Origin: Aureispira anguillae
GTDB lineage: Bacteria; Bacteroidota; Bacteroidia; Chitinophagales; Saprospiraceae
Assembly (NCBI RefSeq): GCF_026000115.1
Contig: NZ_AP026867.1
Location: 2,649,716 to 2,713,715 of the forward strand
Direction of reading: 5' to 3'
DNA: 64,000 nt
Both the position numbers and the translations under genes were made by a program. Below the pieces are notes generated by a model that was not told the DNA's origin, searched no databases, and was given only the letters and a program-made list of their open reading frames with translations. The first letter of the stretch is position 1, and each line of letters opens with the position of its first letter. Positions 37,924 to 62,553 of the stretch are shown one piece after another.

Positions 37924-40257
<2,334 letters not shown>

Positions 40258-44163: not shown

Positions 44164-44312
44164 TTAACGCCCTTCTTAGTTGAATCATTAAATCCCAACG
44201 AATTTCTAAATCCTTTTGGAGCATAAAGCATCCCGAATCTTAAAATCAATCTAAAATTCGGGATCGTTTATTGTTAACAGCCCAATTGATCCTAATTAGC
44301 AATTTAGGTTTA

Positions 44313-47649: not shown

Positions 47650-49057
47650 GATTCGGTCTTAAAGAGTAATACCTGCCCATATCCGACCATGGTCTTTCAA
47701 TGCTTACGAGCCTTACCATTGGATGCATTCCGTGCATTCCATCGTGCGTAAAACCTGATCGAAAAATACGAGACCACCCCAGTTCAACTAATCGACAAAT
47801 CCCATTTGACGCCCATTCATCTCGATAATCTTTTATAATCGACCACGGGTAAACACTTAAGGTCTGATTGTCTCTATTAAAATGTTTTGAAATAGCACTC
47901 AAATCATCTACAGGATGTATAAATATAGTTCTGGTCAGAGGATGATTAATTTCGTTTGCTTCTTCTTCATCCATTACCACAATTGCCCAGTCGTCTCCGT
48001 TTTCGACATTTAACCCTACATAATTTGCTTCCAAAAGAGAAATAGAACGGTTAGCTAAGACATCAATGTTTTTATTTAAAAAGGGGACATTTTTGGAAAA
48101 AACTTTAAAGTATTTTTTTAGTTCTACCAAAAAAGCATCTAAATCACCTTTTACATAGGCTCTTTGTGTATTAAAACAGGCTTCTTGATCGTAATACGAA
48201 CAATCTTCAATCAATCTAAAAGCAGCCTTTTCCATATCACATTGATTCAAGTCTATCGCACTAGCACTCCATCTTGGTCCATATTCTGCAAAAGGTACAT
48301 TTGCTGGTACCTTTTTCTTTATAGCTTCTACGGCACTTTTTCCTCCCCATACACAAACAGAGTCCGAGGCATTAATAAATGCGGTTCCTATCTCATCATT
48401 TTGATGCCAATACCCAAGGGATAAAGATCTTGTTATTGGATGATCTGGGTCTGCTTCAATAAAACATTGAACAAAACCTATTGGTGTTACAGGATCACGG
48501 CTGGGAAGTTTTGCAAAATTTCTGTTTTTTGTCATGATCCCCCGCAAAAGGCTGTAGATAGATGCCAATGGGAGATTTCCTACAAGATAATGCAAGGCTA
48601 AGCCCCTTGGGAAAGCACGCACGTATGACATCTGGGTAGGAATCCATTCGTCAAAAATCCTTTCATTACCAAACTCAGATTCAATTTGGTCATACATATG
48701 GAAACGTTGCATCATAAAATCCCCAATTGTCTTATAATCTCCCTCTATCACAATATCAGAATACTGTGTAAGTAGCGGAGCATAAGTTTCTGCCATTTTC
48801 CTTCCTTGCAAGGCAGATTGATCCCAAAGGTTTCCTACTTTATTTAGAAAAATAGCAATGTCAGAAGTTGTTAATTCTTGTAACTCTTTCGCTATTTTTT
48901 TTCCTTCTTCCAATACCAACTCTAAATCTTTAGCTGTAATTTTTGGCATTCTTATCTCTATCCCACTATCGTACCTAAACGTTACCCGCTCCTCATCCTC
49001 AGAAGAGAGGTAATATTGTTTACCATTAATTATTTTAGGCAAATCGATTGATTTCAT
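47558..49057 (-). CDS. luxC: LuxC-family acyl-CoA/acyl-protein reductase (fatty aldehyde-forming)
   Basis: 499 aa. [77 protein letters not shown] and [25 protein letters not shown] match LuxC block by block. Confidence 0.85.
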   Translation of the reverse strand: [499 protein letters not shown]

Positions 49058-49068
49058 AATTGATGTTT

Positions 49069-49623
49069 TCAGTTTTTAAAATATTTTTGAACAAAGCTTA
49101 ACAGGTCTAGACAAATATCTGTTGCATAAGCACTTTTGTCATTTTGCCTCCCTGACAGTAGGTGAATTCTTTGGGAAACACCAAAATTGATTCCTGCTTG
49201 CATGTCAGTGTCATGGTCGCCAATCATCCAACATTCAGAAGCTTTTTTATCAAAATCAATACAAGCTTGTTCCAGCATTCCTGTTTGAGGTTTACGACAA
49301 AAACAGGCATCTTCTGCCGTATGAGGGCAGTAATAAAATTTTATTTGATCGTTAGAAAGTTGAAGTGATTTTTGAATATAACAATTTGTATTTTCAACAA
49401 ATGTTTCTTCTATTAAACCACGACTGATTGGGGACTGATTTGTAACAACAGCAATCGGTATCCCCATTGAAGCAATAAATTGTAAAGCTTCTACCGAACC
49501 AGCAACAAATTCAATCTCATCAGACTTTAGAATATAAGGTTCCTTATGTTTCAAAATAACACCATCTCTATCGATCAGCAGTAGATTGGGTGGAGGGTTA
49601 TTTTTATTGAATAACGTACGCAT
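49069..49623 (-). CDS. gmhB: D-glycero-D-manno-heptose 1,7-bisphosphate phosphatase-like HAD-IIIA hydrolase
   Basis: 184 aa. LLLIDRDGVI (DxD nucleophile), AVVTNQSPISRG, CFCRKPQTGML (Zn-binding Cys-rich loop of GmhB), MIGDHDTDMQAG. Confidence 0.75.
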   Translation of the reverse strand: MRTLFNKNNPPPNLLLIDRDGVILKHKEPYILKSDEIEFVAGSVEALQFIASMGIPIAVVTNQSPISRGLIEETFVENTNCYIQKSLQLSNDQIKFYYCPHTAEDACFCRKPQTGMLEQACIDFDKKASECWMIGDHDTDMQAGINFGVSQRIHLLSGRQNDKSAYATDICLDLLSFVQKYFKN

Positions 49624-49633
49624 TGAATTATCA

Positions 49634-50164
49634 TTAATTTGAAGGATTTAATTCGTCCGATAAGCGTTTTAACACATCGGGAATATGGGATGGGAATGCA
49701 ATTTTTTCAGGCAAATGATTTATATCAAACCACTTGACCTGCCCTATTTCTATTCCATCTGGCAAAGCAAAAAAATCACCCATTGGTTCAGCGGTATAAT
49801 AGACACAAACATTCTCACCATAATCACTATGATCCGTAGGTTCCATCCAAATACCATGATACTCCTTAAGTTTGACCTTTATTCCAGTTTCTTCAAACAC
49901 CTCTCGAATAGCACAATCTTTAGGGTGTTCATTCCATTCACAATAGCCCCCTGGAATATCCCAGAAGCCATCCCATGGAGCAATCAACCGTTTCACCATT
50001 AACACTTTATTCTTATCTAGCACTAATGCTCCAGCGCAGCACCTTGGGTTTCTCCAAAATTCTGTATGACATTGAGAACACTTATAGGGCAACTCTTTGT
50101 TAGCAGGTGCTCCACAGTTTGAGCAAAAATTCATTTTATCTATTTTTTTTAGCAATAGCCTCAA
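49634..50164 (-). CDS. NUDIX hydrolase with N-terminal zinc ribbon
   Basis: CSNCG...CSQCH ribbon, then Nudix box GGYCEWNEHPKDCAIREVFEETGI. An alternative start is the ATG at 50134. Confidence 0.7.
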   Translation of the reverse strand: MRLLLKKIDKMNFCSNCGAPANKELPYKCSQCHTEFWRNPRCCAGALVLDKNKVLMVKRLIAPWDGFWDIPGGYCEWNEHPKDCAIREVFEETGIKVKLKEYHGIWMEPTDHSDYGENVCVYYTAEPMGDFFALPDGIEIGQVKWFDINHLPEKIAFPSHIPDVLKRLSDELNPSN

Positions 50165-50900
50165 TCGCTAGGTTTAATTTTGAAGAGTCATTGGGGAATC
50201 GTAAAAGGTGGACATCAGGAAGCGTTTCGAAAACAGTACTTGTTCTATCGGTTGCCTGAAAAATTTCTTCAAACCCAGCTTGCTTTAGCAAATTGGTCAG
50301 CATTGTTCGTGAAAGTAGACTTTTATGCTGTCCCCACTGATGCGAAAGGCGGTTAATAAATCTTGCTGAACGCATTCCATCATCGGGCCAGCGATGAATT
50401 TTTGAATCCTCCAAAACATCGTGATCCATTTCTGCCTGTTTTCCCATAATGATAAGTTCAGCAATGTTCTTTGCATCTGGGCAAACAATTCTAATTTTTC
50501 CTCCAGGAGCCAAAACTCGATAGCATTCTTTTAGTAAAAAACAAATATCATCATAGTAAAAATGCTCGATGATATGCTCAGCAAGAATCGCATCAACACT
50601 ATTGTCTTTGAGGGGCAGTTTTAAAAGTAAATTTACAGGATATACATTCTTACCCAATCGGTGGGTATCAAAACCAATCCATCCATCTGCAACCGTAGTT
50701 CCCGAACCAAGGGCAATATTAACTTGGTCTAAAGACGCTAAATGTTTTTCTAATTTTCGTACTTTTATTTGATTCTTAAACAACCGATATAGTTGTTTCG
50801 GAAAGGACAAAAATTCTTTTACTAGATCTTTTTTCGTTAGTGGCACAAATCCCCAATCATCCTTTTCATCAACTCTCCAATTTGGTTCTCTAGTTACCAT
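50136..50900 (-). CDS. Class I SAM-dependent methyltransferase
   Basis: 254 aa. IALGSGTTVADGWIGFD (motif I-like) and RVLAPGGKIRIVCPD (motif post-II). Confidence 0.65.
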   Translation of the reverse strand: MVTREPNWRVDEKDDWGFVPLTKKDLVKEFLSFPKQLYRLFKNQIKVRKLEKHLASLDQVNIALGSGTTVADGWIGFDTHRLGKNVYPVNLLLKLPLKDNSVDAILAEHIIEHFYYDDICFLLKECYRVLAPGGKIRIVCPDAKNIAELIIMGKQAEMDHDVLEDSKIHRWPDDGMRSARFINRLSHQWGQHKSLLSRTMLTNLLKQAGFEEIFQATDRTSTVFETLPDVHLLRFPNDSSKLNLAIEAIAKKNR

Positions 50901-51637
50901 AAATCTGCTTTTCTATGTGGCATTAAATCGATTAGCTTATCCAATGAGTCTACAGAAAACGTAGGCATTGGGATGGAGTTTAATGCCAAATTATTGTTCC
51001 CAATATAAACCGTTTTGTACCCTCTATTAATGGCAGGTAACATATCAGCCTCATAACTATTTCCAACAAATAGGACAAAGTCTTTAGGTGTTAAATTGAT
51101 TGTTTCCTCCAATTGCTTAAATACATTAGATGAAGGTTTTCGCCAGCCACATTCACTAGATAAAATGATCTCATCAAAATAGCCTCCTAATTGATGGGTC
51201 TCAAAGACTTTATTTAATAAAGACTTAGGGATTGCTGTATTTGAAAGGGCTATAATTTCTCCTCCACTCTCCTTTAAATCTTTTAGCAATTCTCTTGCTC
51301 CCTCCAAAGGAGTCAAATAAGTAGTTTCGGCTCCTCCAAAAAGCTGCCAAGCTACTTCTTCCAATATTTCTAACGAAATATTGAGTTTAAAATGATCGAG
51401 TGTATTTTGCAGTATCGTACTAGCAGGGATTTGGTCATCTGACAATCGAAAGTTTTCTTTCATCAATTGATCAATGCCATAATACAGCAATTGGGTCAAT
51501 GATTTTTCATCCATCCCCGTTTTTTCAATGAGCGCTTTGGGCAGTGCTTTTAATTCGGGCATTGCTTCATCAACTAACGTTCCTCCCAAATCAAAAACCA
51601 CGATATAGCGCCCTTCTGTGAAATTGTATTTATTCAT
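50894..51637 (-). CDS. HAD-IA family hydrolase/phosphatase
   Basis: 247 aa. VVFDLGGTLVDE (DxG motif I), ALSNT (motif II), VGNSYEADM (motif IV region). Confidence 0.7.
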   Translation of the reverse strand: MNKYNFTEGRYIVVFDLGGTLVDEAMPELKALPKALIEKTGMDEKSLTQLLYYGIDQLMKENFRLSDDQIPASTILQNTLDHFKLNISLEILEEVAWQLFGGAETTYLTPLEGARELLKDLKESGGEIIALSNTAIPKSLLNKVFETHQLGGYFDEIILSSECGWRKPSSNVFKQLEETINLTPKDFVLFVGNSYEADMLPAINRGYKTVYIGNNNLALNSIPMPTFSVDSLDKLIDLMPHRKADLW

Positions 51638-51651
51638 TGTTTATGTTTATT

Positions 51652-52440
51652 TTACCTTTGAAAGCCTCCTTCACTTGCTATGGTCTGACCAGTTATCCAC
51701 CGTGCATAATCACTATGTAAAAAATGCACCAATCGAGCAGCATCTTTGGGCATTCCCCATCTTCCAGAGGGGAACATATCTGCAACTTGATCGTATAGCT
51801 CACCAGTAAGATAACCAGTGTCCGTAGGACCTGGATTTACGCAGTTAACCCGAATGTTATGTGGTGCAAGTGCTGTAGCTACTTGCTGACACATTCCCCG
51901 AATGGCTTCTTTTGAAAGTGCATATGCAATTTCATCAATCATAGGTCCCAAGTATTGACCACTAGTAAATAAAGTGATTGCCCCTCCCTTTTCCTTATCT
52001 ATTTGTTGGGCAAACGCTTGAATCATAAGCATCGAAGCCCTTACATTAATAGAAAAATGATTGTCAATATGTTCTGATGTCCATTCAAAGATTGGAGCAT
52101 GAACAGAATAAGCATGATTTAGGATCAAACCATCTAAGCTACCTGTTACTTTAGTGGCAGCTTTTATGATTTTTTCTGGTTCATCTGATTTGGATAAATC
52201 AGACGGTGGCAATGCTGTTACTTGATAACCTTTAGCCCTAAGTTCCTTTTCCAAGGAAAATACAAAATCGGTCGTTGCATCTGGATAAGCTCGATCCTTA
52301 TCGTAATTGGAATTTCCATGAATAATAACATGACCTTTTGCTTTTGCACAAAGCTCTGTTATCGCCGTTCCGATGCCTAATGATCTACTAACCCCAGTTA
52401 CTAGTAAGGTTTGATTTTCTAAAGATAAATTACTTTCCAT
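51652..52440 (-). CDS. Short-chain dehydrogenase/reductase (classical SDR)
   Basis: 262 aa. LVTGVSRSLGIGTAI (TGxxxGxG) and a YxxxK-region in the mid-protein. Rossmann fold. Confidence 0.7.
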   Translation of the reverse strand: MESNLSLENQTLLVTGVSRSLGIGTAITELCAKAKGHVIIHGNSNYDKDRAYPDATTDFVFSLEKELRAKGYQVTALPPSDLSKSDEPEKIIKAATKVTGSLDGLILNHAYSVHAPIFEWTSEHIDNHFSINVRASMLMIQAFAQQIDKEKGGAITLFTSGQYLGPMIDEIAYALSKEAIRGMCQQVATALAPHNIRVNCVNPGPTDTGYLTGELYDQVADMFPSGRWGMPKDAARLVHFLHSDYARWITGQTIASEGGFQR

Positions 52441-53347
52441 TTTCTAATCGTCTATTTATAAATACGTTAGTTGGACCTTTTCTTCCTACTATTCCTTCAA
52501 AACCAGCATCTAAAAGCGCCTTGGTTATTTTCTTTCGATCAACATATTTGTCATGTATTTCTACAATCAAAATTCTTACTCTCTGAAACCATTTTGGATT
52601 GTCCAATATAGCAGGTTCCTCAGCTCCTTCAATGTCCATTTTTAATATATCCACAATATCCATATTATGGCGATCAAAAACAACATCTACAGGAATTGCT
52701 TCAACTTCTTCAGGAGGAAGTTTGTGGTTGTACTCAACACGTCCTTCATTAGATTGGCGTTTATCTGCAATGTCCTTATTAACAGTACTTGAACTCCACC
52801 ACTCATTTGGATACAAGGTTACAGATCCCACACTAGATTGAATCGCCGCAGTCTCAACCCCCCAAGAGAAATTATTATTTGAAGCATTTTTCTTTATCAT
52901 TTCTACGTTGTGGCTAACAGGTTCTACACAAACTACTTTTGCATTGGGAAACCTATTCTGAAAGTAAAGTGATGTTAATCCAATATTAGCCCCTAGATCC
53001 ACAACACTTTTGACATTCGGCACAATTGACTCATAATCAAAATCATAAATATTTTGTATAAAATTCTCTCTTAAGATATAGAGATCACTTTGATTTTGAC
53101 GAAACTCAAGCACCAAGGGTCTATTGTGTAGCGTAAGTTTAATTTTAGCAGTTTCTCTAGATATCAAAGGCTGAAAAAACATCCCCATGTGGTATTTTTT
53201 AAGCCAAAAAGCAAGCGTTTTAAATTCTTCTTTTGATACTTGTTCTTTTGCTTGTTTTTTTTCTTCAGACCATTCTGAAAATTGTCTTTTTGCCACTTGA
53301 TAGAGTGACATTTTGGGATCTCCATCCCGACGTAAGTACTTAAACAT
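52430..53347 (-). CDS. FkbM-family methyltransferase
   Basis: 305 aa. VVDLGANIGLTSLYF and ILKMDIEGAEEPAIL. Confidence 0.7.
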   Translation of the reverse strand: MFKYLRRDGDPKMSLYQVAKRQFSEWSEEKKQAKEQVSKEEFKTLAFWLKKYHMGMFFQPLISRETAKIKLTLHNRPLVLEFRQNQSDLYILRENFIQNIYDFDYESIVPNVKSVVDLGANIGLTSLYFQNRFPNAKVVCVEPVSHNVEMIKKNASNNNFSWGVETAAIQSSVGSVTLYPNEWWSSSTVNKDIADKRQSNEGRVEYNHKLPPEEVEAIPVDVVFDRHNMDIVDILKMDIEGAEEPAILDNPKWFQRVRILIVEIHDKYVDRKKITKALLDAGFEGIVGRKGPTNVFINRRLENGK

Positions 53348-53414
53348 AAATTTTAGTTATTTATTTATAATAGTCCGTCCTATAGTGTTATGCACAGTTT
53401 TTAACAGACTAATG

Positions 53415-54104
53415 TTATTTAGACCAATTCAAAAAACTTGAATAGGCTTTTGGTATTCCAATATGCATCGAAGGTTTTCCGTGGTTATAATAACCAAGCT
53501 TACCTAATGCTGCTAATGGTTTGAATAGATCGTCTTCGTTTAGAAATTCAAGTGGATCATTTTTTAAAACTGCTAACGCTTGTTTATCTATCACCATCAT
53601 TCCAACATCAACATGAGTCATTGCCCCATCATTCTTAGAATAGATTTTGATTCCATTGCTATCAAGCATTATATTTGCATTCTCCTTTGCTATTTCTTTT
53701 TCACAGACAGACAAACATGCCAGATGTTCATCCTTAACTGCATGGAGTAGTTTTTTCAGATCAACAGTAGGATATACGTCCCCATATGTAAAAATAAATT
53801 GGGGAGGCAGGCAACTTTCTGCAAATTTCAATGCTCCAATAACGCCTAATGGATAAGGTTCTATCGTGGCTGATATTTTCAAATTTCCATTTGATTGATG
53901 CAACCAATTCATAGCTGCCTCCCAAACCTGATCTGCCCCCACTCCTAACAATAAGTGAACACGTTCACAGTTCACACTAGACCAATAGTCTAATACTTTG
54001 TGAAGAAAAACCCCACTGGGAACAGGTGCTAAGATTTTAGGACTATCCTTAAGAATATCTTTCATTCTTGTTCCCTTTCCACCGCATGCTATTACAACTT
54101 CCAT
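53415..54104 (-). CDS. Sugar-phosphate nucleotidyltransferase (heptose-1-phosphate guanylyl/nucleotidyltransferase-like)
   Basis: 229 aa. N-terminal VVIACGGKGTRMKD is the NTP-transferase G-x-G-T-R motif. The heptose-1-P substrate is inferred from context. Confidence 0.7.
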   Translation of the reverse strand: MEVVIACGGKGTRMKDILKDSPKILAPVPSGVFLHKVLDYWSSVNCERVHLLLGVGADQVWEAAMNWLHQSNGNLKISATIEPYPLGVIGALKFAESCLPPQFIFTYGDVYPTVDLKKLLHAVKDEHLACLSVCEKEIAKENANIMLDSNGIKIYSKNDGAMTHVDVGMMVIDKQALAVLKNDPLEFLNEDDLFKPLAALGKLGYYNHGKPSMHIGIPKAYSSFLNWSK

Positions 54105-54110
54105 AAGATA

Positions 54111-54701
54111 TTATTTAGAAAGTCTTTTTCTTATTTCTGCGCAAATCACATGATGCAAGCAAACATGAATAGACTCTGTAACAGGCGTAATATATTCTTT
54201 CTCTGGTGTTGGAACGACTAAGGCGACATCGCATAATTTAGCAAATGTTCCTCCTCCTGCGCCCGCAAATCCAATTGTTTTGGCACCACGTGATTTTGCT
54301 AATTCAATAGCCTTTACAAGATTTCCAGACCATCCACTACCACCATGTACAGAAAACAGCACTAAAATATCATCTTTTTTAATCCATGGGTCCAACATTC
54401 CATACCAAGCATTTTCCCAATCTGTATCGTTGGTCCATGCTGTATGCGCACTATAATTACTAACTAAATCCAGTGTGCGAAACCCACCGTTGTCTCCTGT
54501 TGCATACTTTGCCAAATCAGCTACAAAATGAGCTGCTGTTGAAGCAGAGCCCCCATTACCAACAGAATAGATAACATTATCCGTTTTATGTACTGATAAA
54601 ATTAAATCTACTGCTTTTTGTACAGACTCTAAATCAACCTTTTGCATTGATTTAATCATTTCTTCGGTAGCTACTTGTAAGCTATTTTCTACTGTGTTCA
54701 T
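54111..54701 (-). CDS. gmhA: Sedoheptulose-7-phosphate isomerase (SIS domain, GmhA)
   Basis: 196 aa. VIYSVGNGGSASTAAHFVADL and ILVLFSVHGGSGWSGNLVKAIELAKSRGAKTIGFAG match GmhA. Confidence 0.8.
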   Translation of the reverse strand: MNTVENSLQVATEEMIKSMQKVDLESVQKAVDLILSVHKTDNVIYSVGNGGSASTAAHFVADLAKYATGDNGGFRTLDLVSNYSAHTAWTNDTDWENAWYGMLDPWIKKDDILVLFSVHGGSGWSGNLVKAIELAKSRGAKTIGFAGAGGGTFAKLCDVALVVPTPEKEYITPVTESIHVCLHHVICAEIRKRLSK

Positions 54702-54707
54702 CTTTCT

Positions 54708-55634
54708 TTATTTTAATTTAAATTCTTTTACTTTATTTACCCCTTCTGTTGAAACAGTTGTTTCGACGATTTTAAACTCAAGTTTTTTGAGCGCATTAAT
54801 CACTTGTGTTCGTGTTTCAGATTTTCCACTAATAAGTACAAACCCTCCTGCTCCTGCTCCAATTGCTTTAGCACCACTAGCCCCTTTCTCTATTGCAGTC
54901 TGTATAATGGTATCTATGGTATCTGTTGTTGCCTCTGGTAAGCGTTTACATTTTGCAGCCCAATGACGGCGTAAAATGTCACCAAACATTTCTCCATCTT
55001 TTAATAAAATTGCTTTTTCAACTTCTTCGACTGAAGCTGGACGAGAATCATCGGTTCCATCCACATAAGAAGCTCCTAGGCTTTTTAATATTTTGCTTGC
55101 GTTTCTGCGAATACCCGTTTCAACCAATACAAAATTGTGCTCAAAAAGATACGCTAGACCATCCAACAAATCATTGCGTTTTTTTACGCTTATCTCACCA
55201 TTGGAATTCGCTACCATTTCAACACAGCCCCCCACTGCTGACGCTAATTGATCCTGAAAGCCAACGGGTTGATTTAATATTTCTCGTTCCCACTTGTAGG
55301 CCTTCAATCCAATATCAAGAGGCGTTTCTATTTTTCCCTTTTTTAAAAAATTACTTGCTGCTACCAGAGCCACAGCCACAGCCCCACTCCCTCCTAAACC
55401 AGCGCCTGGGCTTACTTCTGATTTAATATTCACATTAAAATTGGGATGTTCTTTTTTAAATAAATCATTTAACTGCGTAGAGTCATGTTTTATATCTGTT
55501 CCTACCGAAACTTTGACTTTTAATTTTAGAGATACAGCCAAAAGATGCGCTCCTGATTTTAGATAACATTCAGGCAGGTCAGTCCCTCCTCCAGCTAGAG
55601 AAAGTCTCAGAGGAGCATAAAATTCTAAATTCAT
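54708..55634 (-). CDS. hddA: GHMP-family sugar kinase (D-glycero-D-manno-heptose 7-phosphate kinase-like)
   Basis: 308 aa. N-terminal APLRLSLAGGGTDLPEC and GHMP motif SPGAGLGGSGAVAVALV. HddA-like architecture. Confidence 0.7.
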   Translation of the reverse strand: MNLEFYAPLRLSLAGGGTDLPECYLKSGAHLLAVSLKLKVKVSVGTDIKHDSTQLNDLFKKEHPNFNVNIKSEVSPGAGLGGSGAVAVALVAASNFLKKGKIETPLDIGLKAYKWEREILNQPVGFQDQLASAVGGCVEMVANSNGEISVKKRNDLLDGLAYLFEHNFVLVETGIRRNASKILKSLGASYVDGTDDSRPASVEEVEKAILLKDGEMFGDILRRHWAAKCKRLPEATTDTIDTIIQTAIEKGASGAKAIGAGAGGFVLISGKSETRTQVINALKKLEFKIVETTVSTEGVNKVKEFKLK

Positions 55635-55695
55635 GGTTTAATTTTTAATCGTTAATCATCAACTGTGCAGCACTCATGCCATAATCAACAGAGTG

Positions 55696-56625
55696 TCATA
55701 ATAGCGTAAGCCAATTAAATGTATCCTCCTTTCTACCTTCACATATACCTAAATAAGTTGTTTGTAGTTTTTGGGTAATCGGTCCAACTGCCCCATTTCC
55801 AATATCAATTTTATCAATACTAAGCACAGGAGTCAACTCCGCCAATGTTCCTGTAAGAAATATTTCATCTGCCCAGTAAAGTTCTGTTCTAGGAATATCT
55901 CTTTCAACTACCTGAATCTTGAAATGAGATCTTAAGAGATTAATACAATTACTTCTGGTAATACTTTCTAGAATTCCAGCAGAAATTGGAGGAGTAATCA
56001 CTTGACCATTTCTAACCATAAAAATAGTAGCTCCAGTAGTTTCAGCTACCAAACCTTTATCGTTCAACAAAATTGCTTCATCATAACCGCCATTAAGTGC
56101 ATCAATCATTGGTAGTTTAAAGGATTGATAAGCAGCTCCTGCTTTTAGCAAAGGCGACATACTCAAATCATTCATTCTTCTCCATGAGCTAACACAACAC
56201 TTAATTCCCTCTTGAATCGAGGGACTACGTTCAACAGGAAAAGCAACAATATAAGCTCCATTCTTCACCTCGCCATAGCCCTCACCATATCTACCTTTTT
56301 CAACATATACAGTAGGACGTACATAAATATGCCCTTCTAATTTTAGCGCATTAATTAAATCTATGATTCCAGCCTTAAGCTCTTCTTTAGTAAAAGGACT
56401 AGCAATGCGTAGGATTTTAAGCGCAGAAAATAACCTATTTAGATGTTGTTCAAGAGAGATCAAAGCATGAGATCCATCTTTTTGTTGATAACAACGTATC
56501 CCCTCAAATATATTCGCTCCACGTGTCGCTAATTCTGACCAAACATGAACCGTAGCATTTTCCCAAGGTTCTACGTTTCCATTAAACCAAATTAGAGAAG
56601 GCTGTTCCTGTTTTTTCATAATCAA
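55696..56625 (-). CDS. ilvE: Fold-type IV PLP aminotransferase, IlvE-like (branched-chain amino acid aminotransferase)
   Basis: 309 aa. IWFNGNVEPWENATVHVWSELATRGANIFEGIRCY, VRPTVYV and ETTGATIFMVRNGQVITPP..GILESITR are colinear with E. coli IlvE. Confidence 0.75.
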   Translation of the reverse strand: MIMKKQEQPSLIWFNGNVEPWENATVHVWSELATRGANIFEGIRCYQQKDGSHALISLEQHLNRLFSALKILRIASPFTKEELKAGIIDLINALKLEGHIYVRPTVYVEKGRYGEGYGEVKNGAYIVAFPVERSPSIQEGIKCCVSSWRRMNDLSMSPLLKAGAAYQSFKLPMIDALNGGYDEAILLNDKGLVAETTGATIFMVRNGQVITPPISAGILESITRSNCINLLRSHFKIQVVERDIPRTELYWADEIFLTGTLAELTPVLSIDKIDIGNGAVGPITQKLQTTYLGICEGRKEDTFNWLTLL

Positions 56626-57646
56626 TTGGGTTTATTTTAATTCTACATTCTTTTTTTGCGGCTAAATAAGCCATTTCAACAAACTGACTCGCTCGAACAC
56701 CATCTATGCCCGTTCCCAATAATTCTCCTCCATTTAGCAGAAAATCTACAAAATGATTCCATTCATTTTTCCAAGATTTATCCCCTCCTCTATAATCAAT
56801 AACTTCTTCTTTGAATGGTCCATTCGGGTCCCGTTTTCCAATTCTGAGTCGTTGCACATCATAGCTTCCACCAAGACCATTTATCTCAACATAACCCATT
56901 GTTCCATACAACTCCAATCGGAATCGATTTCGCCATTGCGTTATAGAAGAATTAACGGTAACTGAAACGCCATCTGAGCGGTGGAACAATGCTGTTGCAG
57001 TATCTTCTAGAGGAGCGATTGGGAAAACAAGCGTTGCAACATTGGCAGAAACAGCCTCAAATTCTCCAACAAACCACCTAAAAAGGTCAATACAGTGAAT
57101 CCCCTGCTCCATTAGTTGTCCACCTGCTGTTATTTCTACATCTGAACGCCACTCTTTTTCGCAATTTTCTCTTCCGCAGATGCCATACAAAGCTCTTCCT
57201 GTAATCGGTTTTCCAATTGCGCCACTTTTTATTAATTCATTCGCCTTTATCATAGCAGGATGGTGTCTATGATTAAAGCCACATTTTAGGATGACCTTAT
57301 TTTCTGCTGCCAATTGCACTAATTTTTGAGCATCACTTGACTTTCTTGTTAGTGGTTTTTCACAAAGGATGTGTTTCTTATTCTTTATAGCCGCTTGAGC
57401 TATTTCAAAATGCACATTAGGGGGGGTACAAATAACCACAATATCTATTTCTTCATCTTCAATGATATTTTTCCAATGTGGTACTGCTATTGCGTTTGCC
57501 TTTTGTGCAACTATCTTTACCTGCGTTTCGTCAACTCCTGCTATTGACTTTATTTCCGTATATGGATTTTCTTGAATAGATAGCAGCCTACGATTAGCTT
57601 GTAATCCTGAACCTACAATACCTATTTTCATTATTTGTTTATTCAC
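56582..57646 (-). CDS. Gfo/Idh/MocA-family NAD(P)-dependent oxidoreductase (WbpB-like sugar dehydrogenase candidate)
   Basis: 354 aa. MKIGIVGSGLQANRRL Rossmann N-terminus, EKPL motif (ILCEKPLTRK), and a C-terminal alpha/beta domain. Confidence 0.75.
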   Translation of the reverse strand: MNKQIMKIGIVGSGLQANRRLLSIQENPYTEIKSIAGVDETQVKIVAQKANAIAVPHWKNIIEDEEIDIVVICTPPNVHFEIAQAAIKNKKHILCEKPLTRKSSDAQKLVQLAAENKVILKCGFNHRHHPAMIKANELIKSGAIGKPITGRALYGICGRENCEKEWRSDVEITAGGQLMEQGIHCIDLFRWFVGEFEAVSANVATLVFPIAPLEDTATALFHRSDGVSVTVNSSITQWRNRFRLELYGTMGYVEINGLGGSYDVQRLRIGKRDPNGPFKEEVIDYRGGDKSWKNEWNHFVDFLLNGGELLGTGIDGVRASQFVEMAYLAAKKECRIKINPIDYEKTGTAFSNLV

Positions 57647-58904
57647 AGCCTGGTTTTAAATAGATTAAGTTTGTGTTTTTCACTTCATTTTGTTCATACA
57701 AATGCCATAGATCCATCAAAATGTTTCCATTCATTGCCTCTGATATATCCTGAACACTTATTCCCTTCGCACATCCTGATTTTAGAATAAGAACGACATC
57801 TGCATTTTGGATCGCTCCGATTGCGGTATCAAAGAGTTCTATATTTAGCGCTGTTTCTTTGACCATTGGATCAAAGGCCGTTATCGCTGCCTTGTACTGA
57901 TTTAAATATTGAATCACTTGCAAGCCTGGAGATCTTCTAAGCGTATCAGTGCCTTCTGTATATACAAGCCCTAATAGTGCAACCCGCTTATTCTCTAAAG
58001 AAGTAAATGCTTCTATTCTCTTAAAAAGGGTATCAATTCGATCCTCATTAATAGCAATTACAGTGTCAAATAAGGAGGTTTTTTTATTGGTCTTGCGCCC
58101 TATTTCCTGCAAAGAACGAATATCTCTGGCAAGCGTCCCTCCACTAAACCATGGTCCAGGAAGAAGTGGCATTCTATTGCTAATTCTTTGATCCTTTTTC
58201 ATGATTTCAACCACCTGATAAGCATCTGCTTGCATCGCTACTGCTATATCCGACAATTGATTTGAAAAACTAATTGATGTTGCTAAAAAAGAATTTATGG
58301 CATGCTTTGCCAATTCAGCTGTCCTGAGGTCACACAAAATTGGATTCTTATCAATCGAGGAAAGTAAATCTGCAATTTCTTTGGTATACGATCTGTCATT
58401 GGCTCCAATAACCGTCATATCTGGATTTTGAAATTTCTCTATTGCTTTTCCAAGTTGCAAATTTTCAGGTATATATGCGATTTTACTTCCATTCCTAATT
58501 TGCGCATCAGTTAATAACTTTTCGGTTGTTCCAATTGGAACTTGAGAACTAATCATATAATTCTTTATCGGCAAATCAGATAGCTTTTGCATAATTGCCT
58601 CAATAGAATCTAAACTACATACATCATTTTCATCAATGGGGGTATCAATTGTTATCCATACATAATCCGCCTTTGCCAAGGCTTCTATGTCCGAAACAAA
58701 TTCCAACCTATTTGCTGAAATTCCTTTAGTGATTAGCTCATTTAAATTGGGTTCAAATAAGGGCGCTTTTCCCAAATTTAATTGATCGACCTTTTCTCTA
58801 TCTTCATCAAAACCAATAATATGTTGAAAACTTTCGGACAGGGCAGCAGCCGTAACACAACCTAAGTGCCATAAACCAACAATAGCTATAGTTTTATTTA
58901 TCAT
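57639..58904 (-). CDS. Nucleotide-sugar 6-dehydrogenase (UDP-glucose/GDP-mannose dehydrogenase family; WbpA/TviB-like)
   Basis: 421 aa. TIAIVGLWHLGCVTAAAL (GxGxxG), a central dimerisation helix, and a C-terminal UDP-binding domain. Confidence 0.8.
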   Translation of the reverse strand: MINKTIAIVGLWHLGCVTAAALSESFQHIIGFDEDREKVDQLNLGKAPLFEPNLNELITKGISANRLEFVSDIEALAKADYVWITIDTPIDENDVCSLDSIEAIMQKLSDLPIKNYMISSQVPIGTTEKLLTDAQIRNGSKIAYIPENLQLGKAIEKFQNPDMTVIGANDRSYTKEIADLLSSIDKNPILCDLRTAELAKHAINSFLATSISFSNQLSDIAVAMQADAYQVVEIMKKDQRISNRMPLLPGPWFSGGTLARDIRSLQEIGRKTNKKTSLFDTVIAINEDRIDTLFKRIEAFTSLENKRVALLGLVYTEGTDTLRRSPGLQVIQYLNQYKAAITAFDPMVKETALNIELFDTAIGAIQNADVVLILKSGCAKGISVQDISEAMNGNILMDLWHLYEQNEVKNTNLIYLKPGCE

Positions 58905-59884
58905 TCTTTTAGGTAATTTATCATTCTTTCTACTGCGATTTCAACCGCTTTATCTGAATTATTGGGAGGATTCCAACCTATTTTTTCAACTTTAGAGACA
59001 TCTAACTGAACAACGGGTTGATCTCCAGGCCAGCCTATTTTACCACCAGTATAATTATAATCAACCCCTGATAAGCCCAAGGCTTTTGTGACATAATTTG
59101 CAATGGTAATAATAGATGTCACTTTTGTATTTCCTAGATTAAAAATCTCTACTTGATGATCGTTTGGAATTTCATAATTATCTAATAACCACAAGATTCC
59201 TTTGATGCAATCCTCGACCAAAAAATAACTTTTTGCCTGCTTCCCATCTCCTAGAATAGTGAGTTGAGTTGGATCCTCCTTCAACCTTGTAATAAAGTCC
59301 CTTATTGCTCCACGAGACATACGATTTCCCAATACATTTCCAAATCGAAAAATCCAGCCCCTTATCCCAAATAGATTGGCATAAGAAGAAATAAAAGCTT
59401 CAGCAGATATTTTGCCAGCGCCATACATAGATAATGGATACAAAGGAGCACTACTTTCCGTAACCTTTTGTTGCGACAAATTTCCATAGACAGCCCCAGT
59501 ACTAGAAAAAACGATGTCCTTTATTCCTTCCGCAACCATTGCATCAAGGATATTTCGAGTACCATAAACAGCAGAGTCAATATCAATTCGTGTATTCTTA
59601 ATGCCAATAGGGATATTTGCATTCCCCGCTAAATGCCAAACTTGTTGCTGGGACACCATTGCTTTACGAACAATATTTTCATCTTGAATATCTCCTTCAA
59701 TAAAGTTAAACCGTTCTCTTTTTTTTGCCTTTTCTAACCATGCCTGATTAGCATTTGATAGATTATCCAAAACTGTAATTGTTCGTCCTGAATCTAATAA
59801 AGCATCTACTAAATGGCTGCCTATAAAACCTGCTCCTCCTGTAACAATTACATTGTTAGGAATTGACTTAGGAATTGGTATCAT
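58901..59884 (-). CDS. Extended-SDR NAD-dependent epimerase/dehydratase (WbpP/TviC-like)
   Basis: 327 aa. NVIVTGGAGFIGSHLVDALL and a YxxxK catalytic region (MYGAGK). Confidence 0.8.
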   Translation of the reverse strand: MIPIPKSIPNNVIVTGGAGFIGSHLVDALLDSGRTITVLDNLSNANQAWLEKAKKRERFNFIEGDIQDENIVRKAMVSQQQVWHLAGNANIPIGIKNTRIDIDSAVYGTRNILDAMVAEGIKDIVFSSTGAVYGNLSQQKVTESSAPLYPLSMYGAGKISAEAFISSYANLFGIRGWIFRFGNVLGNRMSRGAIRDFITRLKEDPTQLTILGDGKQAKSYFLVEDCIKGILWLLDNYEIPNDHQVEIFNLGNTKVTSIITIANYVTKALGLSGVDYNYTGGKIGWPGDQPVVQLDVSKVEKIGWNPPNNSDKAVEIAVERMINYLKE

Positions 59885-60543
59885 ACATTTATCTTTGTTG
59901 CTGCATTATCAAATTCTGCCGCAGTATGTTTGGACATTTCATGTACCGTGCATTTTTGGAGAATAGCTGGCGTAACAGTACAAATATGGGGTCTTCCGAT
60001 CGCTGCACTTGTAATAGCAAACACCGTTCGTATACTCCCCACAATAATTTCGGTATCACTTCCTACTTCATCAATCCAATTTCTGACGCTAGCTATTTGC
60101 TCAACAGGATCAGCTCCTTGGTCACTAATTCTACCAAAAAACAAAGAAACATACCTAGCGCCAGCTTTTGCTGCCATAATTGCTTGAGGTGCCATCATAC
60201 AAGCGGTTGCATTAATAGCATACCCCTCGTCACTTAATTCCTTAATGATCGGAAGCAGTGATTTTCCATCTGCATCAACAACAGGTACCTTTATTACTAT
60301 ATTCTCTCCTAAACTTGCAAACTTCTTTGCTTGCTTTAGAATACTCTCTCGATCTTTCCCACTAACTTGAATAGAAACGGGTGCTCCATTTGCTGCTGCA
60401 ACCATTTTAATAAGATGAGAATCCACATCACTAATACCTTGTTTTTTTATAATCAAAGGATTCGTTGTAATCCCCTCTCCAACTCCAATATTGAACCAAT
60501 ATTTAATGCTTTCAATATCACAACTATCTACAAAAAATTTCAT
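59881..60543 (-). CDS. Fructose-6-phosphate aldolase / TalC-type short transaldolase
   Basis: 220 aa. MKFFVDSCDIESIKYWFNIGVGEGITTNPLII and IVIKVPV (Schiff-base Lys) are colinear with FsaA/TalC. Confidence 0.8.
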   Translation of the reverse strand: MKFFVDSCDIESIKYWFNIGVGEGITTNPLIIKKQGISDVDSHLIKMVAAANGAPVSIQVSGKDRESILKQAKKFASLGENIVIKVPVVDADGKSLLPIIKELSDEGYAINATACMMAPQAIMAAKAGARYVSLFFGRISDQGADPVEQIASVRNWIDEVGSDTEIIVGSIRTVFAITSAAIGRPHICTVTPAILQKCTVHEMSKHTAAEFDNAATKINV

Positions 60544-61567: not shown

Positions 61568-62553
61568 TTAATTTAAATCTTTTATACACGCTAATTAGGT
61601 TTTAAAATATTGACGTTGTAAAAAAAACATTTTAATACCTGTATTATTTAGCCATAGTTTAATAGCAAACATAAGCCTATCTGCTCATGGATTAAGGCAA
61701 CTTAACCAATGACACTTTTAAAATAACTTCACTTTAAAGTCCTTCTTTATTCTATTGTTTAAAAAACCTTCAGGTTCATTTAACATGCTTATTCATTTCA
61801 AGACATACCTCTCCCTCAAGCACAACCAACCTTAGGCTATACTTCAATCTAGAGCAGAGGGTGCCCTAACAAAAAAATTTTTATTTTTTTAGTTCATTAG
61901 ATATTAGTAGGTAAATAACCAACCTAAGTTAGTTGCTTACCAGCAATGCTTTCCTATTCTGTAAATTTCACAACAACAGTTGCCTGATAGCCTGCAAAAT
62001 CAGTTGATTATGCACACAAAGACGCTTACCCGTTTAATTATTTAATTTAACCAAACAGATTAAAAACCATTGAAAATCAAATAGGTTTACCAATTTTTTT
62101 AGATAACTCTAAATACATAAGTAGGACGCAAGTATTTTCTAAAAAATACTTCATCTTCATCAAACACCTTTAACTTTATTATCAATAATTGTTGATTTGG
62201 GGTAAAAATCTATTATTACTTGATGATAATATTATGAATGAATGTAACGCCGTTTCTTATAAAAAAAGTTGAATATAACTTAATGAAATGGATAGAGGTT
62301 CTTCTATATAGATTATATATTTTGGAAGGTTTGGGAATAATGGATTTTAAATGTTTCTTTTTACAACAAAACAAATTTAGTCTAATTTATAACAAAATGC
62401 AAGGACTATATGAATATTTTTTATTCCAATATATTAATGTAATATTCAATAAAATCAACTATAGTCTTCTAATAGCTTTCCACTTAAGTATAGAAATATT
62501 ATACAATCCCTACCAGCACGCTATCCTAGACCTTGACCTAAAGAAAATTCTAA

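Follow-up and report, generated by a model that had tools for sequence, protein, structure and literature searches.

Which sugar is made by the genes clustered in the genome of Aureispira anguillae (Bacteroidota), and does it serve the cell surface or a small metabolite? The window analysed here, a stretch of 64,000 nucleotides, contains a minus-strand operon running from 61567 to 44313, in which 19 co-directional genes mostly overlap or are separated by less than 70 bp, and which is followed by a gene for an MFS transporter:

60737..61567, minus strand: LuxD-like alpha/beta-hydrolase acyltransferase, operon gene 1 (Pfam Acyl_transf_2, 73.2 bits)
59881..60543, minus strand: LmbR/CcbR-type transaldolase-family enzyme (Pfam TAL_FSA, 136.6 bits)
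58901..59884, minus strand: extended SDR epimerase/dehydratase, LmbM family (Pfam Epimerase, 159.9 bits)
57639..58904, minus strand: Cys-less, LmbL-type UDP-glucose/GDP-mannose dehydrogenase-family enzyme (NCBIfam NDP-sugar dehydrogenase passes, 279.6 vs 189.8)
56582..57646, minus strand: Gfo/Idh/MocA oxidoreductase, LmbZ/CcbZ family (Pfam GFO_IDH_MocA N- and C-domains)
55696..56625, minus strand: class IV (BCAT-fold) aminotransferase (Pfam Aminotran_4, 155.9 bits; NCBIfam BCAT passes, 290 vs 279)
54708..55634, minus strand: GHMP anomeric sugar-phosphate kinase, LmbP/CcbP clade (Pfam GHMP_kinases_N and _C)
54111..54701, minus strand: LmbN-type SIS-domain ketose/aldose phosphate isomerase (Pfam SIS_2, 49.9 bits)
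53415..54104, minus strand: HddC/LmbO-like sugar-1-phosphate nucleotidyltransferase (Pfam NTP_transf_3 sub-threshold, 21.8 bits vs 27)
52430..53347, minus strand: FkbM-family methyltransferase 1 (Pfam Methyltransf_21, 62.3 bits; TIGR01444 passes)
51652..52440, minus strand: classical SDR, FabG-like (Pfam adh_short_C2, 129.5 bits)
50894..51637, minus strand: HAD-IA phosphatase (Pfam Hydrolase, HAD_2)
50136..50900, minus strand: class I SAM methyltransferase (Pfam Methyltransf_11, 39.4 bits)
49634..50164, minus strand: Nudix hydrolase (Pfam NUDIX, 75.6 bits)
49069..49623, minus strand: GmhB-like HAD-IIIA phosphatase (NCBIfam HAD-IIIA and histidinol-phosphatase-type domain models pass)
47558..49057, minus strand: LuxC-family acyl-CoA/acyl-protein reductase (Pfam LuxC, 216.4 bits; NCBIfam LuxC, 315 vs 750)
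46453..47577, minus strand: LuxE-family acyl-protein synthetase (Pfam LuxE, 207.4 bits, from ORF residue 40)
45526..46422, minus strand: FkbM/RfbT-like methyltransferase 2 (Pfam Methyltransf_21, 94.6 bits)
44313..45515, minus strand: GT4 glycosyltransferase, last gene of the operon (Pfam Glycos_transf_1, 101.6 bits)
44230..44264, minus strand: terminator-like hairpin, 15-pair stem directly after the GT4 stop codon (consensus scan only)
42291..43526, minus strand: MFS transporter (Pfam MFS_1, 35.5 bits)

A sequence-only reading had assigned five of these genes to a GDP-D-glycero-D-manno-heptose route of the GmhA/HddA/HddC type. The five open reading frames lie on the minus strand exactly where they had been placed (59881-60543, 220 aa; 54111-54701, 196 aa; 54708-55634, 308 aa; 53415-54104, 229 aa; 49069-49623, 184 aa), and for four of them Pfam confirms the superfamily named (TAL_FSA, SIS_2, GHMP, HAD), while the nucleotidyltransferase remains below the Pfam threshold and has HddC as its best NCBIfam match. 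The profile models proposed as a check yield a different outcome: each named heptose model is indeed the best NCBIfam match of its protein, but all scores fall below the curated equivalog cut-offs (GmhA, 86.7 vs 209 bits; HddA, 91.9 vs 600; HddC, 58.9 vs 300; GmhB, 140 vs 178), as does that for FSA/TalC (136 vs 246). The SDR, UGDH-like, Gfo/Idh/MocA and aminotransferase genes within 49069-60543 had been left uninterpreted; the first three match LmbM, LmbL and LmbZ by family, and the fourth takes the place of LmbS.

According to Pfam and NCBIfam, this one operon hence carries the R, N, P, K, O, M, L and Z families of the lincosamide module leading from GDP-octose to lincosamine, families to which the synthesis of C8 sugars has been ascribed (PMC4351081 Table 2; PMC12945683). 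Identities to the lmb-like (L007, L008, L011) and ccb-like (L003, L024) open reading frames of the Streptomyces comparison clusters are 27-44%. The module differs in that an LmbS-type aminotransferase was not found in the Aureispira operon, where a class IV enzyme stands in place of the DegT-type LmbS. We thus consider it probable that the interval represents the sugar-nucleotide core of a mobile cassette which is homologous to the lincosamide C8 amino-sugar module, and not a GmhA/HddA/HddC pathway; the sugar itself is probably a C8 sugar.

Two proteins carry this assignment by their clades, and three by active-site or indel characters. In neighbour-joining trees, for which the locus set was collected by a kinase-derived pattern, the cassette and lincosamide kinases are separated from 30 heptose-type kinases in 199 of 200 bootstraps. 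Consistently, the HddA model aligns only partially with the Aureispira kinase (91.9 bits) and likewise with Lmb-type kinases (78-110 bits), whereas it covers heptose-type kinases at full length (153-476 bits). Against solved heptose kinases, the Aureispira and a CcbP-like kinase score 54-71 and 90-99 bits, respectively, and a kinase from inside the heptose-type clade (L019) scores 384-437 bits. The activity of LmbP is itself a prediction (PMC4351081). The isomerase scores 78-87 bits with the NCBIfam GmhA models (cut-offs 209-276) and forms a clade with LmbN-type proteins (support 84.5-99%). It also shares two features with LmbN/CcbN-like proteins, that is, (i) a remodelled phosphate loop, FSVHGG...GWS.NL, where the GmhA type has ISTSGNS, and (ii) a four-residue insertion ahead of the catalytic Glu/His. 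Neither insertion occurs in the 25 GmhA-type sequences compared, among them that of E. coli GmhA.

The transaldolase shares 37% identity with P0062, a CcbR-like protein, and has Gln and Phe at FSA positions 59 and 131, where all cassette and lincosamide transaldolases have Gln together with Phe or Leu. Among the 120 nearest homologues, 99 exhibit Glu and Phe at these positions; Gln replaces Glu in only 21, and each of those for which the context was read belongs to a cassette or a lincosamide cluster. LmbR, which carries the same Gln plus Leu/Phe signature, was reported to be a working transaldolase that converts fructose-6-phosphate (F6P) or sedoheptulose-7-phosphate (S7P) with ribose-5-phosphate (R5P) as acceptor into octulose-8-phosphate (PMC5854111). 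A transaldolase gene is found nearby in 13 of 15 LmbN-type loci but in none of 22 GmhA-type loci, which indicates that S7P is normally supplied without a dedicated enzyme; together with the active-site signature, this leaves the earlier view of a TalC that merely supplies S7P unsupported. The dehydrogenase has Thr (SGGTLARD) at the position of the catalytic Cys253 in E. coli Ugd (GGYCLPKD), as have seven cassette homologues and all four LmbL/CcbL-like proteins; to the latter it is 29-32% identical.

The remaining families are less discriminating. The extended SDR is 42-44% identical to LmbM/CcbM-like open reading frames (L007, L008, L011, L024), with a clade support of only 59% and 3ehe as best solved structure (242 bits), and generic GalE and UGDH structures are about equally close to the SDR and the dehydrogenase as are LmbM and LmbL. 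The phosphatase, the nucleotidyltransferase and the Gfo-type enzyme are not specifically Lmb-like. The GmhB-like phosphatase, with GmhB (4pnh, 80.5 bits) as best solved structure, forms a clade of its own with L006, L042 and L048 (100%), and no more than 18 of 200 bootstraps unite it with LmbK-like proteins; the nucleotidyltransferase matches best the solved structure of Y. pseudotuberculosis HddC (54.5 bits), is 29-30% identical to LmbO/CcbO-like open reading frames and clusters with these in fewer than half of the bootstraps (95 of 200). For the Gfo/Idh/MocA enzyme, identities to LmbZ/CcbZ-like open reading frames are 35-41%, yet many unrelated metagenomic homologues from outside the lincosamide set are closer (44-49%); hence, it is to be regarded only as a member of the LmbZ family and a candidate orthologue. 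The aminotransferase retains four residues of E. coli IlvE (K159, E193, Y95, R97), while its side-chain pocket is altered in all eight cassette enzymes (Y31R, M107R and V109G/A/S in E. coli IlvE numbering). It is encoded in every cassette variant, also in those without LuxCDE, and is proposed to be a keto-sugar aminotransferase replacing LmbS.

The gene set is by no means confined to Aureispira. A cassette of 19-20 genes recurs at ∼30-68% identity (lower in reduced variants) in one cyanobacterium and on about ten contigs from metagenomes or MAGs. Halotia wernerae (L001) and several metagenome contigs share the bulk of these genes with little change in their order, including the series of Nudix, GmhB-like, LuxC, LuxE and GT4 genes. 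Since the operon comprises 19 genes, and gene set and order largely recur in other phyla, the grouping of the five genes is not due to chance. FkbM methyltransferase 1 is kept in all variants, the class I methyltransferase and the HAD-IA phosphatase in most, and Nudix is a core gene wherever the variant was read far enough (L001, L002, L006, L042, L043, L048, L052, L053); the DNA of L044 ends ahead of the expected Nudix position. The FabG-like SDR is present in L001, L002, L043 and L044 and missing from L042, L048, L052 and L053. FkbM/RfbT-like methyltransferase 2 has a 61% identical counterpart in Halotia, and the GT4 enzyme is matched at 51% identity in L053 and at 27-29% in L006 and L048.

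Fatty-acid-reductase homologues (LuxC, LuxE and LuxD), confirmed by Pfam beside the sugar genes along with the two FkbM methyltransferases, are often part of the cassette. The LuxD-like gene, the product of which scores 81.8 bits with NCBIfam LuxD (cut-off 420), heads it in L001, L002, L042, L043, L044 and L052; the LuxC gene follows the GmhB-like gene also in L042 and L053, with 55-56% identity in L052 and L053; and LuxE is 44% identical in L053. The listed LuxE reading frame starts at a TTG (47649), and its translation MGLKSNN... begins 24 codons further in, so that the true start is likely the ATG at 47577.

How well, then, does a heptose product survive? In this reading, GmhA, HddA, GmhB and HddC would yield GDP-D-glycero-alpha-D-manno-heptose, the transaldolase would boost S7P and the other genes would tailor the heptose. 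Apart from the best NCBIfam matches, the best solved structures are likewise heptose enzymes, and the phosphatase, which lies outside the LmbK group, comes nearest to its cut-off. Moreover, a transaldolase was not found in the DNA read of variants L052 and L053 (the dehydrogenase is also missing from L052); a dedicated C8-forming step is thus not common to all cassettes, in keeping with a substrate, for instance S7P, that central metabolism provides. Nonetheless, we regard a heptose as unlikely: every equivalog cut-off is missed by far, a split supported at 84-99% sets kinase and isomerase apart from 25-30 heptose-type enzymes, the phosphate loop of the isomerase is remodelled, the 22 GmhA-type loci are devoid of a transaldolase, and the Aureispira transaldolase has the LmbR-specific Gln instead of the canonical Glu. 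To our knowledge, known heptose tailoring does not combine a Gfo/Idh/MocA enzyme with a UGDH-like enzyme that lacks the Cys. Both families do occur in the lincosamide set (PMC4351081).

Alternatively, the likeness to Lmb proteins might reflect shared ancestry only, and the product might be another higher-carbon or otherwise unusual sugar nucleotide, for example a C7 sugar of different configuration or a C9 sugar made from another acceptor, or a sugar arising from an FSA-like aldolase that uses dihydroxyacetone. The cassette enzymes indeed branch as sister groups beside the lincosamide clades instead of falling inside them, so that the chain length of the substrate could differ; the transaldolase is devoid of both the transaldolase Glu and the FSA Tyr and adjoins E. 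coli FSA in trees built without the signature columns; and the aminotransferase belongs to a fold class different from that of LmbS. However, the nine families of the gene set are the same and three independent derived characters are shared, both of which speak for conserved chemistry, and the R5P acceptor reported for LmbR points in the same direction, which makes this explanation rather improbable. Finally, that the locus is an ordinary one for Aureispira O-antigen, capsule or protein glycosylation, its sugar being a residue of a cell-surface polymer, is highly improbable: GT4 and FkbM/RfbT-like enzymes are typical of such loci, luxE and luxC homologues occur in Aeromonas flagellin glycosylation islands, and a related locus (L050), which combines a kinase and an LmbN-type isomerase with a canonical transaldolase, adjoins Wzx, Wzy and several glycosyltransferases, but the operon has a single glycosyltransferase and, by Pfam, no Wzx, Wzy, ABC exporter or initiating transferase, it adjoins an MFS transporter, and the compact cassette is mobile across phyla, with transposase or conjugation genes next to some copies and an EryCIII-like natural-product glycosyltransferase in one.

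Returning to the lincosamide-type C8 amino sugar, we infer the following scheme, in which the C8 substrate, the nucleotide, the succession of tailoring steps, the function of the Lux proteins and the end product are all proposals. The LmbR-type transaldolase would transfer a C3 unit from F6P or S7P to R5P, the resulting octulose-8-phosphate would be converted to octose-8-phosphate by the LmbN-type isomerase and phosphorylated at C1 by the LmbP-type kinase, the HAD-IIIA phosphatase would then remove the 8-phosphate in the role of LmbK, and the nucleotidyltransferase would form an NDP-octose, probably GDP-octose. The succession of transaldolase, isomerase, anomeric kinase, phosphatase and NDP-transferase recognized by the sequence-only reading is thus right, and the kinase is not of the hexose type, whereas a hexose-type kinase had been named beforehand as a finding that would speak against the proposal; it is the assignment to a GDP-heptose that is unsupported. 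The SDR, the Cys-less dehydrogenase and the Gfo/Idh/MocA enzyme might subsequently accomplish epimerisation, oxidation and deoxygenation, and the class IV aminotransferase would introduce the amine. The FkbM and class I methyltransferases might methylate the sugar, the LuxD, LuxE, LuxC and FabG-like proteins might provide an acyl or aldehyde group, the GT4 enzyme would transfer the sugar, and the Nudix and HAD-IA enzymes might trim nucleotides or phosphates. The MFS transporter is possibly the exporter of the product, although its membership of the unit is uncertain; cassette variant L048 also has an MFS gene, which is unrelated to that of Aureispira. The locus encodes, as had been suggested, a dedicated route to a specialised metabolite rather than LPS-core synthesis, and it does so in a cassette that has passed as a compact unit from one bacterial phylum to other, distant ones.

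Matches to Pfam and NCBIfam families delineate, on the minus strand of the Aureispira anguillae window, an operon of 19 co-directional genes extending from 61567 down to 44313, most of which overlap or are separated by gaps of <70 bp. We consider it rather probable that this operon, as part of a mobile cassette found in several phyla, constitutes an NDP-octose/amino-octose module of the lincosamide type.

Table. Genes of the operon, from 61567 down to 44313 (families called from Pfam and NCBIfam profile matches)
Gene 1, minus strand: LuxD-like acyltransferase
Gene 2, 59881-60543, minus strand: transaldolase
Gene 3, minus strand: extended SDR
Gene 4, minus strand: UDP-glucose-dehydrogenase-family enzyme
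Gene 5, minus strand: Gfo/Idh/MocA oxidoreductase
Gene 6, minus strand: class IV aminotransferase
Gene 7, minus strand: GHMP kinase
Gene 8, minus strand: SIS isomerase
Gene 9, minus strand: nucleotidyltransferase
Gene 10, minus strand: FkbM methyltransferase
Gene 11, minus strand: FabG-like SDR
Gene 12, minus strand: HAD-IA phosphatase
Gene 13, minus strand: class I methyltransferase
Gene 14, minus strand: Nudix hydrolase
Gene 15, minus strand: GmhB-like HAD-IIIA phosphatase
Gene 16, minus strand: LuxC
Gene 17, 46453-47649 (as listed, with a TTG start), minus strand: LuxE
Gene 18, minus strand: second FkbM methyltransferase
Gene 19, minus strand: GT4 glycosyltransferase

As listed, the LuxE reading frame overlaps LuxC by 92 nt and the family alignment starts at residue 40; the in-frame ATG at 47577 appears more likely to be the start than the TTG. 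A terminator-like hairpin is located directly 3' of the GT4 gene, and 0.8 kb beyond it follows an MFS transporter gene on the same strand; no Wzx, Wzy, ABC exporter or second glycosyltransferase was found among the genes of the operon region. On the other side, a 1-kb, AT-rich, non-coding gap (61568-62553) separates the operon from an esterase gene. This gap exhibits no convincing promoter consensus and yielded no riboswitch or other Rfam match, and a sigma-70 promoter scan, the consensus of which is unsuited to Bacteroidota, gave fewer matches than shuffled sequence. The esterase-family, lipoprotein-like gene itself (62554-63432, minus strand) and a class III aminotransferase gene cut by the window end (63429-63998, minus strand; Pfam Aminotran_3), which we take from direct reading of the sequence to be BioA-like, lie just upstream of the cluster and were not found in other cassette copies. 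The G+C content of the operon is 35-38% versus ~33% in its neighbours. Farther away, the window encodes a 1171-residue protein (31192-34707, minus strand) comprising DUF7948, SBBP β-propeller repeats and a C-terminal type IX secretion sorting domain and, in a G+C-richer stretch (~0.41), a 759-residue protein (37978-40257, plus strand) with two peroxidase-domain stretches, which looks like a KatG-type catalase-peroxidase.

The sequence-only reading had assigned five of the genes to a GDP-heptose route, in which an FSA/TalC-type transaldolase feeds GmhA, HddA, HddC and GmhB. All five reading frames are present on the minus strand with exactly the coordinates proposed, and Pfam confirms the TAL_FSA, SIS, GHMP kinase and HAD superfamilies, while the nucleotidyltransferase gave only a sub-threshold match to NTP_transf_3. 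Likewise, the best NCBIfam match of each protein is the very model that had been named, but all five remain below the equivalog cut-offs. The labels FSA/TalC (136 bits versus a cut-off of 246), GmhA (TIGR00441, 86.7 versus 209.45; NF001628, 77.9 versus 265), HddA (NF049969, 91.9 versus 600, with partial alignment) and HddC (NF049965, 58.9 versus 300) are thus not borne out. For GmhB, the HAD-IIIA and histidinol-phosphatase-type domain models pass, while the GmhB models do not (140 bits versus 178, 101 versus 150, and 91.5 versus 250).

The operon does share reaction logic and superfamilies (SIS isomerase, GHMP anomeric kinase, HAD-IIIA phosphatase, nucleotidyltransferase) with the GDP-D-glycero-α-D-manno-heptose pathway of Campylobacter and Burkholderia capsules and of S-layer glycans, which also provides the best-scoring named models and solved structures. 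It differs, however, in that (i) its proteins fail all curated cut-offs, (ii) its kinase and isomerase fall outside the heptose-type clades, (iii) the phosphate loop of its isomerase is remodelled, and (iv) it contains a dedicated transaldolase along with an Lmb-type tailoring set, which are absent from 22 GmhA-type loci. We regard the GmhA/HddA/GmhB/HddC route as unlikely to be the true product pathway: the heptose label is probably wrong, with the kinase, isomerase, transaldolase and dehydrogenase exhibiting lincosamide-type characters instead. That the genes encode a specialised route was recognised correctly, the pathway being real and non-trivial.

The C8 amino-sugar set of lincosamide producers comprises the transaldolase LmbR, the C8 isomerase LmbN, the predicted C8 kinase LmbP, the C8 phosphatase LmbK, the guanylyltransferase LmbO, the epimerase LmbM, the dehydrogenase LmbL, the oxidoreductase LmbZ and the aminotransferase LmbS (PMC4351081 Table 2; PMC12945683). 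LmbR transfers a C3 unit from F6P or S7P to ribose-5-P, yielding octulose-8-P (PMC5854111), and the sequence in which LmbM, L, Z and S act is taken partly from a review (PMC12945683). Our literature search revealed no report of a dedicated C8 transaldolase route outside lincosamide producers. To our knowledge, a dedicated transaldolase route leading to C8 sugar nucleotides has so far been characterised in producers of these antibiotics alone. Wang et al. are said to have shown in 2020 that LmbM, LmbL, CcbZ and CcbS turn GDP-octose into GDP-lincosamide by 6-epimerisation, 6,8-dehydration, 4-epimerisation and 6-transamination.

Simple distance (neighbour-joining) trees place the kinases of cassettes and lincosamide clusters on one side of a bipartition, against 30 other kinases, in 199/200 bootstraps, which sets the window kinase apart from the heptose-type clade to which the HddA label would have assigned it; the clade in which it joins five LmbP/CcbP-like Streptomyces kinases is supported at 97-99.5%. 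The 30 other kinases are anchored as heptose kinases because the one from locus L019 matches solved heptose-7-P kinases with 384-437 bits. The window kinase scores 54-71 bits against 4n3o, 3k85 and 4usk, and a CcbP-like kinase 90-99 bits against solved heptose kinases. Consistently, heptose-type kinases align with the HddA model over its full length (153-476 bits), and the lincosamide-type kinases align partially (78-110 bits; window kinase, 92 bits). An exact-sequence look-up of the window kinase matched no record.

The window isomerase is 36-39% identical to LmbN-type isomerase domains and forms a clade with LmbN/CcbN-like proteins at 99% support (84.5% once the metagenome surface-glycan locus L050 is included). 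The stronger evidence is that it is devoid of the GmhA-type phosphate loop I-S-(T/A)-S-G-(N/K)-S, which is present in E. coli GmhA (ISTSGNS) and in 24 other GmhA-type proteins; the loop of the window protein is FSVHGGSGWSGNL, with an insertion, and that of cassette and LmbN/CcbN-like proteins reads FSV(H/N)GG...(G/S)(W/V)S.NL. A second insertion, of four residues, precedes the catalytic Glu/His. Both insertions are shared by every cassette protein and every LmbN/CcbN-like protein and are absent from the 25 GmhA-type proteins including E. coli GmhA. In contrast to LmbN, the window isomerase does not carry a carrier-protein domain.

The transaldolase is 37% identical to the CcbR-like homologue P0062, the gene of which is part of a Streptomyces cluster with celesticetin-type lincosamide gene content. 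Where transaldolases have their catalytic Glu (a site occupied by Gln59 in E. coli FSA), Gln is found in the window, every cassette and every LmbR/CcbR-like protein, and the same proteins have Phe or Leu at the position of FSA Tyr131. Among the 120 nearest homologues, 99 of which exhibit the canonical Glu and Phe, this signature is restricted to cassette and lincosamide proteins; likewise, all Gln-type transaldolases with genomic context read belong to a cassette or a lincosamide cluster. When the signature columns are removed, the Glu-type transaldolases still separate in 77 of 100 bootstraps. The Gln-type proteins (window and the Streptomyces clusters L007, L008 and L024) lack both known acid/base residues, that is, the transaldolase Glu and the FSA Tyr, yet LmbR has been reported to be active. 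A transaldolase gene is found within 13 of 15 LmbN-type loci versus none of 22 GmhA-type loci (Fisher p = 3e-8, the loci not being independent), and since the latter carry none, clusters using S7P evidently need no dedicated transaldolase. L050 (L050:1-15791, JGI metagenome contig Ga0556622_003046) is a Wzx/Wzy polysaccharide locus that encodes a transaldolase of the canonical Glu type. Accompanying it are a GHMP kinase of the heptose clade, an epimerase, a nucleotidyltransferase, a Gfo-like enzyme and an isomerase that is of the LmbN type and has the loop insertion; transaldolase-fed higher-sugar routes may therefore exist in surface-glycan loci too.

The UGDH-like dehydrogenase is 29-32% identical to LmbL/CcbL-like proteins. 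Cys253 of E. coli Ugd (GGYCLPKD) is replaced by Thr (SGGTLxRD) in the window protein, seven homologues from cassettes and each of the four LmbL/CcbL-like proteins, and the change of the KD motif to RD is common to the window and LmbL-like enzymes. Because the catalytic Cys is a Thr, uronic acid formation by the canonical thioester route is impossible, and we reject this role for the dehydrogenase, which has its active site in common with LmbL. The SDR is 42-44% identical to LmbM-type proteins, with 59% clade support. Comparison with solved structures did not discriminate lincosamide-type from generic for either enzyme, the SDR and the dehydrogenase being about equally close to GalE/UGDH structures as to LmbM/LmbL. 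The best structural match of the SDR is 3ehe (242 bits), almost equalled by 8rdg (240 bits), which is titled 'SDR family NAD(P)-dependent oxidoreductase'; the same comparison also gave 8rdh and 8rdi. The Gfo/Idh/MocA enzyme is 35-41% identical to LmbZ-type proteins; LmbZ is ruled out as its nearest relative, since many generic homologues are closer (44-49% identity).

Orthology with Lmb proteins is unsupported in the trees for the nucleotidyltransferase (29-30% identical to LmbO-like proteins; weak joint clade in 95/200 bootstraps) and the phosphatase (27-32% identical to LmbK-like proteins; joint clade in only 18/200), and the HAD-IIIA phosphatase forms its own cassette-specific clade, joining neither E. 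coli GmhB nor LmbK. No DegT/DnrJ/EryC1-type aminotransferase, the type of LmbS, is encoded in the operon, its sole aminotransferase being of class IV. This enzyme passes the BCAT model and retains Lys159, Glu193, Tyr95 and Arg97 of E. coli IlvE. Substitutions in the hydrophobic pocket for the side chain are found throughout the eight cassette members (Tyr31 to Arg, Met107 to Arg, Val109 to Gly, Ala or Ser). We reject a plain BCAT role in supplying an acyl precursor because the enzyme is retained in the Lux-less variants L006 and L048 and pocket residues have become arginines. We infer that it may take the place of the non-orthologous LmbS by aminating the anionic NDP-keto-sugar.

Taken together, the operon shares with the lincosamide octose module (i) the enzyme families for eight of nine steps, (ii) the clades of kinase and isomerase with LmbP and LmbN, (iii) the Gln transaldolase, the isomerase loop insertions and the Cys-to-Thr dehydrogenase, and (iv) the linkage of the transaldolase to isomerase and kinase. 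However, the eight window proteins with homologues in lincosamide clusters exhibit only 27-44% identity, the phosphatase does not group with LmbK, and a class IV enzyme takes the place of the DegT-type LmbS. The operon is also devoid of the ergothioneine/mycothiol S-glycosylation genes LmbT, V and E, of the condensation genes LmbC and D, of the LmbN carrier-protein domain, and of propylproline and resistance genes. A Pfam search among 20 genes found no resistance gene and none of the families of LmbC, D, E, F, T, V and IH (A-domain, TldD-like, PIG-L, MDMPI_N); the A-domain, TldD-like, PIG-L and MDMPI_N families are present in the ccb-like loci L003 and L024 and in L049. Conversely, the operon contains LuxCDE homologues, two FkbM methyltransferases, a Nudix hydrolase, a HAD-IA phosphatase and a GT4 as extras. 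Hence the operon is not a lincosamide cluster: it has neither the LmbS type nor genes for condensation, thiol machinery or resistance. The cassette clades are, moreover, sister to the lincosamide clades and not nested inside them, which counts against the octose reading, as do the tree placements of the phosphatase and the nucleotidyltransferase, the closer generic relatives of the Gfo enzyme, the similar closeness of SDR and dehydrogenase to GalE/UGDH structures, and the simplicity of the distance trees.

The hosts differ as well: the cassette is not confined to actinomycetes but occurs in Bacteroidota, cyanobacteria and others. Its relatives, found via close homologues of the transaldolase and the Gfo enzyme, comprise largely the same gene set, with the order kept in most copies and rearranged in few. 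Besides the marine gliding bacterium of the window, a cyanobacterium and about ten contigs from metagenomes or MAGs carry it. Halotia wernerae UHCC 0503, the cyanobacterium (L001), encodes 15 of the proteins at 50-68% identity; further copies are on contigs L002, L042, L043, L044, L052 and L053, and L048 and L006 (the latter a Nocardioidaceae MAG) represent reduced variants. The Lux genes belong to the cassette unit, because L042 and L053 keep the window order Nudix, GmhB-like, LuxC, which in L053 continues with LuxE and GT4. Nudix and GmhB-like HAD-IIIA genes are present in every variant read far enough and HAD-IA in most, and the L044 copy contains an EryCIII-like glycosyltransferase. In L052 (L052:1-19241), the cassette lies beside IS110 and rve transposases and a HicAB pair, and in L043 (L043:1-7000) beside Bacteroidota-type conjugation genes (TraG-like, DUF4099, DUF3945); these adjoining mobile-element genes fit horizontal spread. 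From its sequence context, the cassette looks like a mobile biosynthetic unit, not a lineage-specific surface-glycan locus. No description of it was found in our literature search.

In the DNA read, neither L052 nor L053 has a transaldolase, and L052 is also devoid of the dehydrogenase. A substrate drawn from central metabolism would account for this more readily, which again counts against the octose reading. A kinase pattern scan covering one genome per species yielded 37 kinase loci, including four Streptomyces lincosamide-type clusters (L007, L008, L011 and L024, the first three with the gene order R-S-O-P-Z-N-M-L-K), the Halotia cassette and L006. About 30 of the loci, from Chloroflexota, Dormibacterota, Alphaproteobacteria, cyanobacteria and others, contain kinase, isomerase or phosphatase genes and no transaldolase.

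The operon shares the LuxC, LuxE and LuxD (Acyl_transf_2) families with the LuxCDE system of luminous bacteria, here linked to a FabG-like SDR. Its proteins match the Pfam families but score far below the Lux equivalog cut-offs (LuxC, 315 bits versus 750; LuxE, 249 versus 550; LuxD, 82 versus 420), and Pfam detected no luciferase-family gene (luxAB) in the operon. In some cassette variants, an AMP-ligase or a protein weakly resembling PapA is swapped in or added. Aeromonas flagellin glycosylation islands likewise combine luxE and luxC homologues with a 3-oxoacyl-ACP reductase beside sugar genes, and a lipo-sugar is suspected there (PMC7874193). Because luciferase is missing, acyl genes are exchanged among variants and this precedent exists, we propose that the LuxD, LuxE and LuxC homologues would provide the amino-sugar with an acyl or aldehyde substituent. 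The methyltransferases would decorate this sugar and the GT4 would transfer it, while the Nudix, GmhB-like HAD-IIIA and HAD-IA enzymes would trim nucleotide or phosphate and the MFS transporter may export the product. We tentatively raise the possibility that the cassette represents a previously undescribed, horizontally spreading class of natural products from Bacteroidota, cyanobacteria and actinobacteria, namely a lincosamine-like amino-octose that is O-/N-methylated and N-acylated or N-alkylated via LuxD/LuxE/LuxC.

For annotation, these results call for caution, since best matches below the cut-offs of GmhA, HddA and HddC may hide a different sugar chain length. Three sequence markers, that is, the transaldolase Gln, the isomerase loop insertion and the Cys-less dehydrogenase, can be used for mining such pathways. 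Diagnostic C8 enzymes in a compact cassette would mean that octose-type sugars are more widespread than thought, and the cassette points towards an amino-sugar product with lipid or acyl decoration that is as yet uncharacterised. Were the natural-product class raised above real, it would represent the first octose amino-sugar metabolite from beyond the Streptomyces lincosamides, and possibly a bioactive one.
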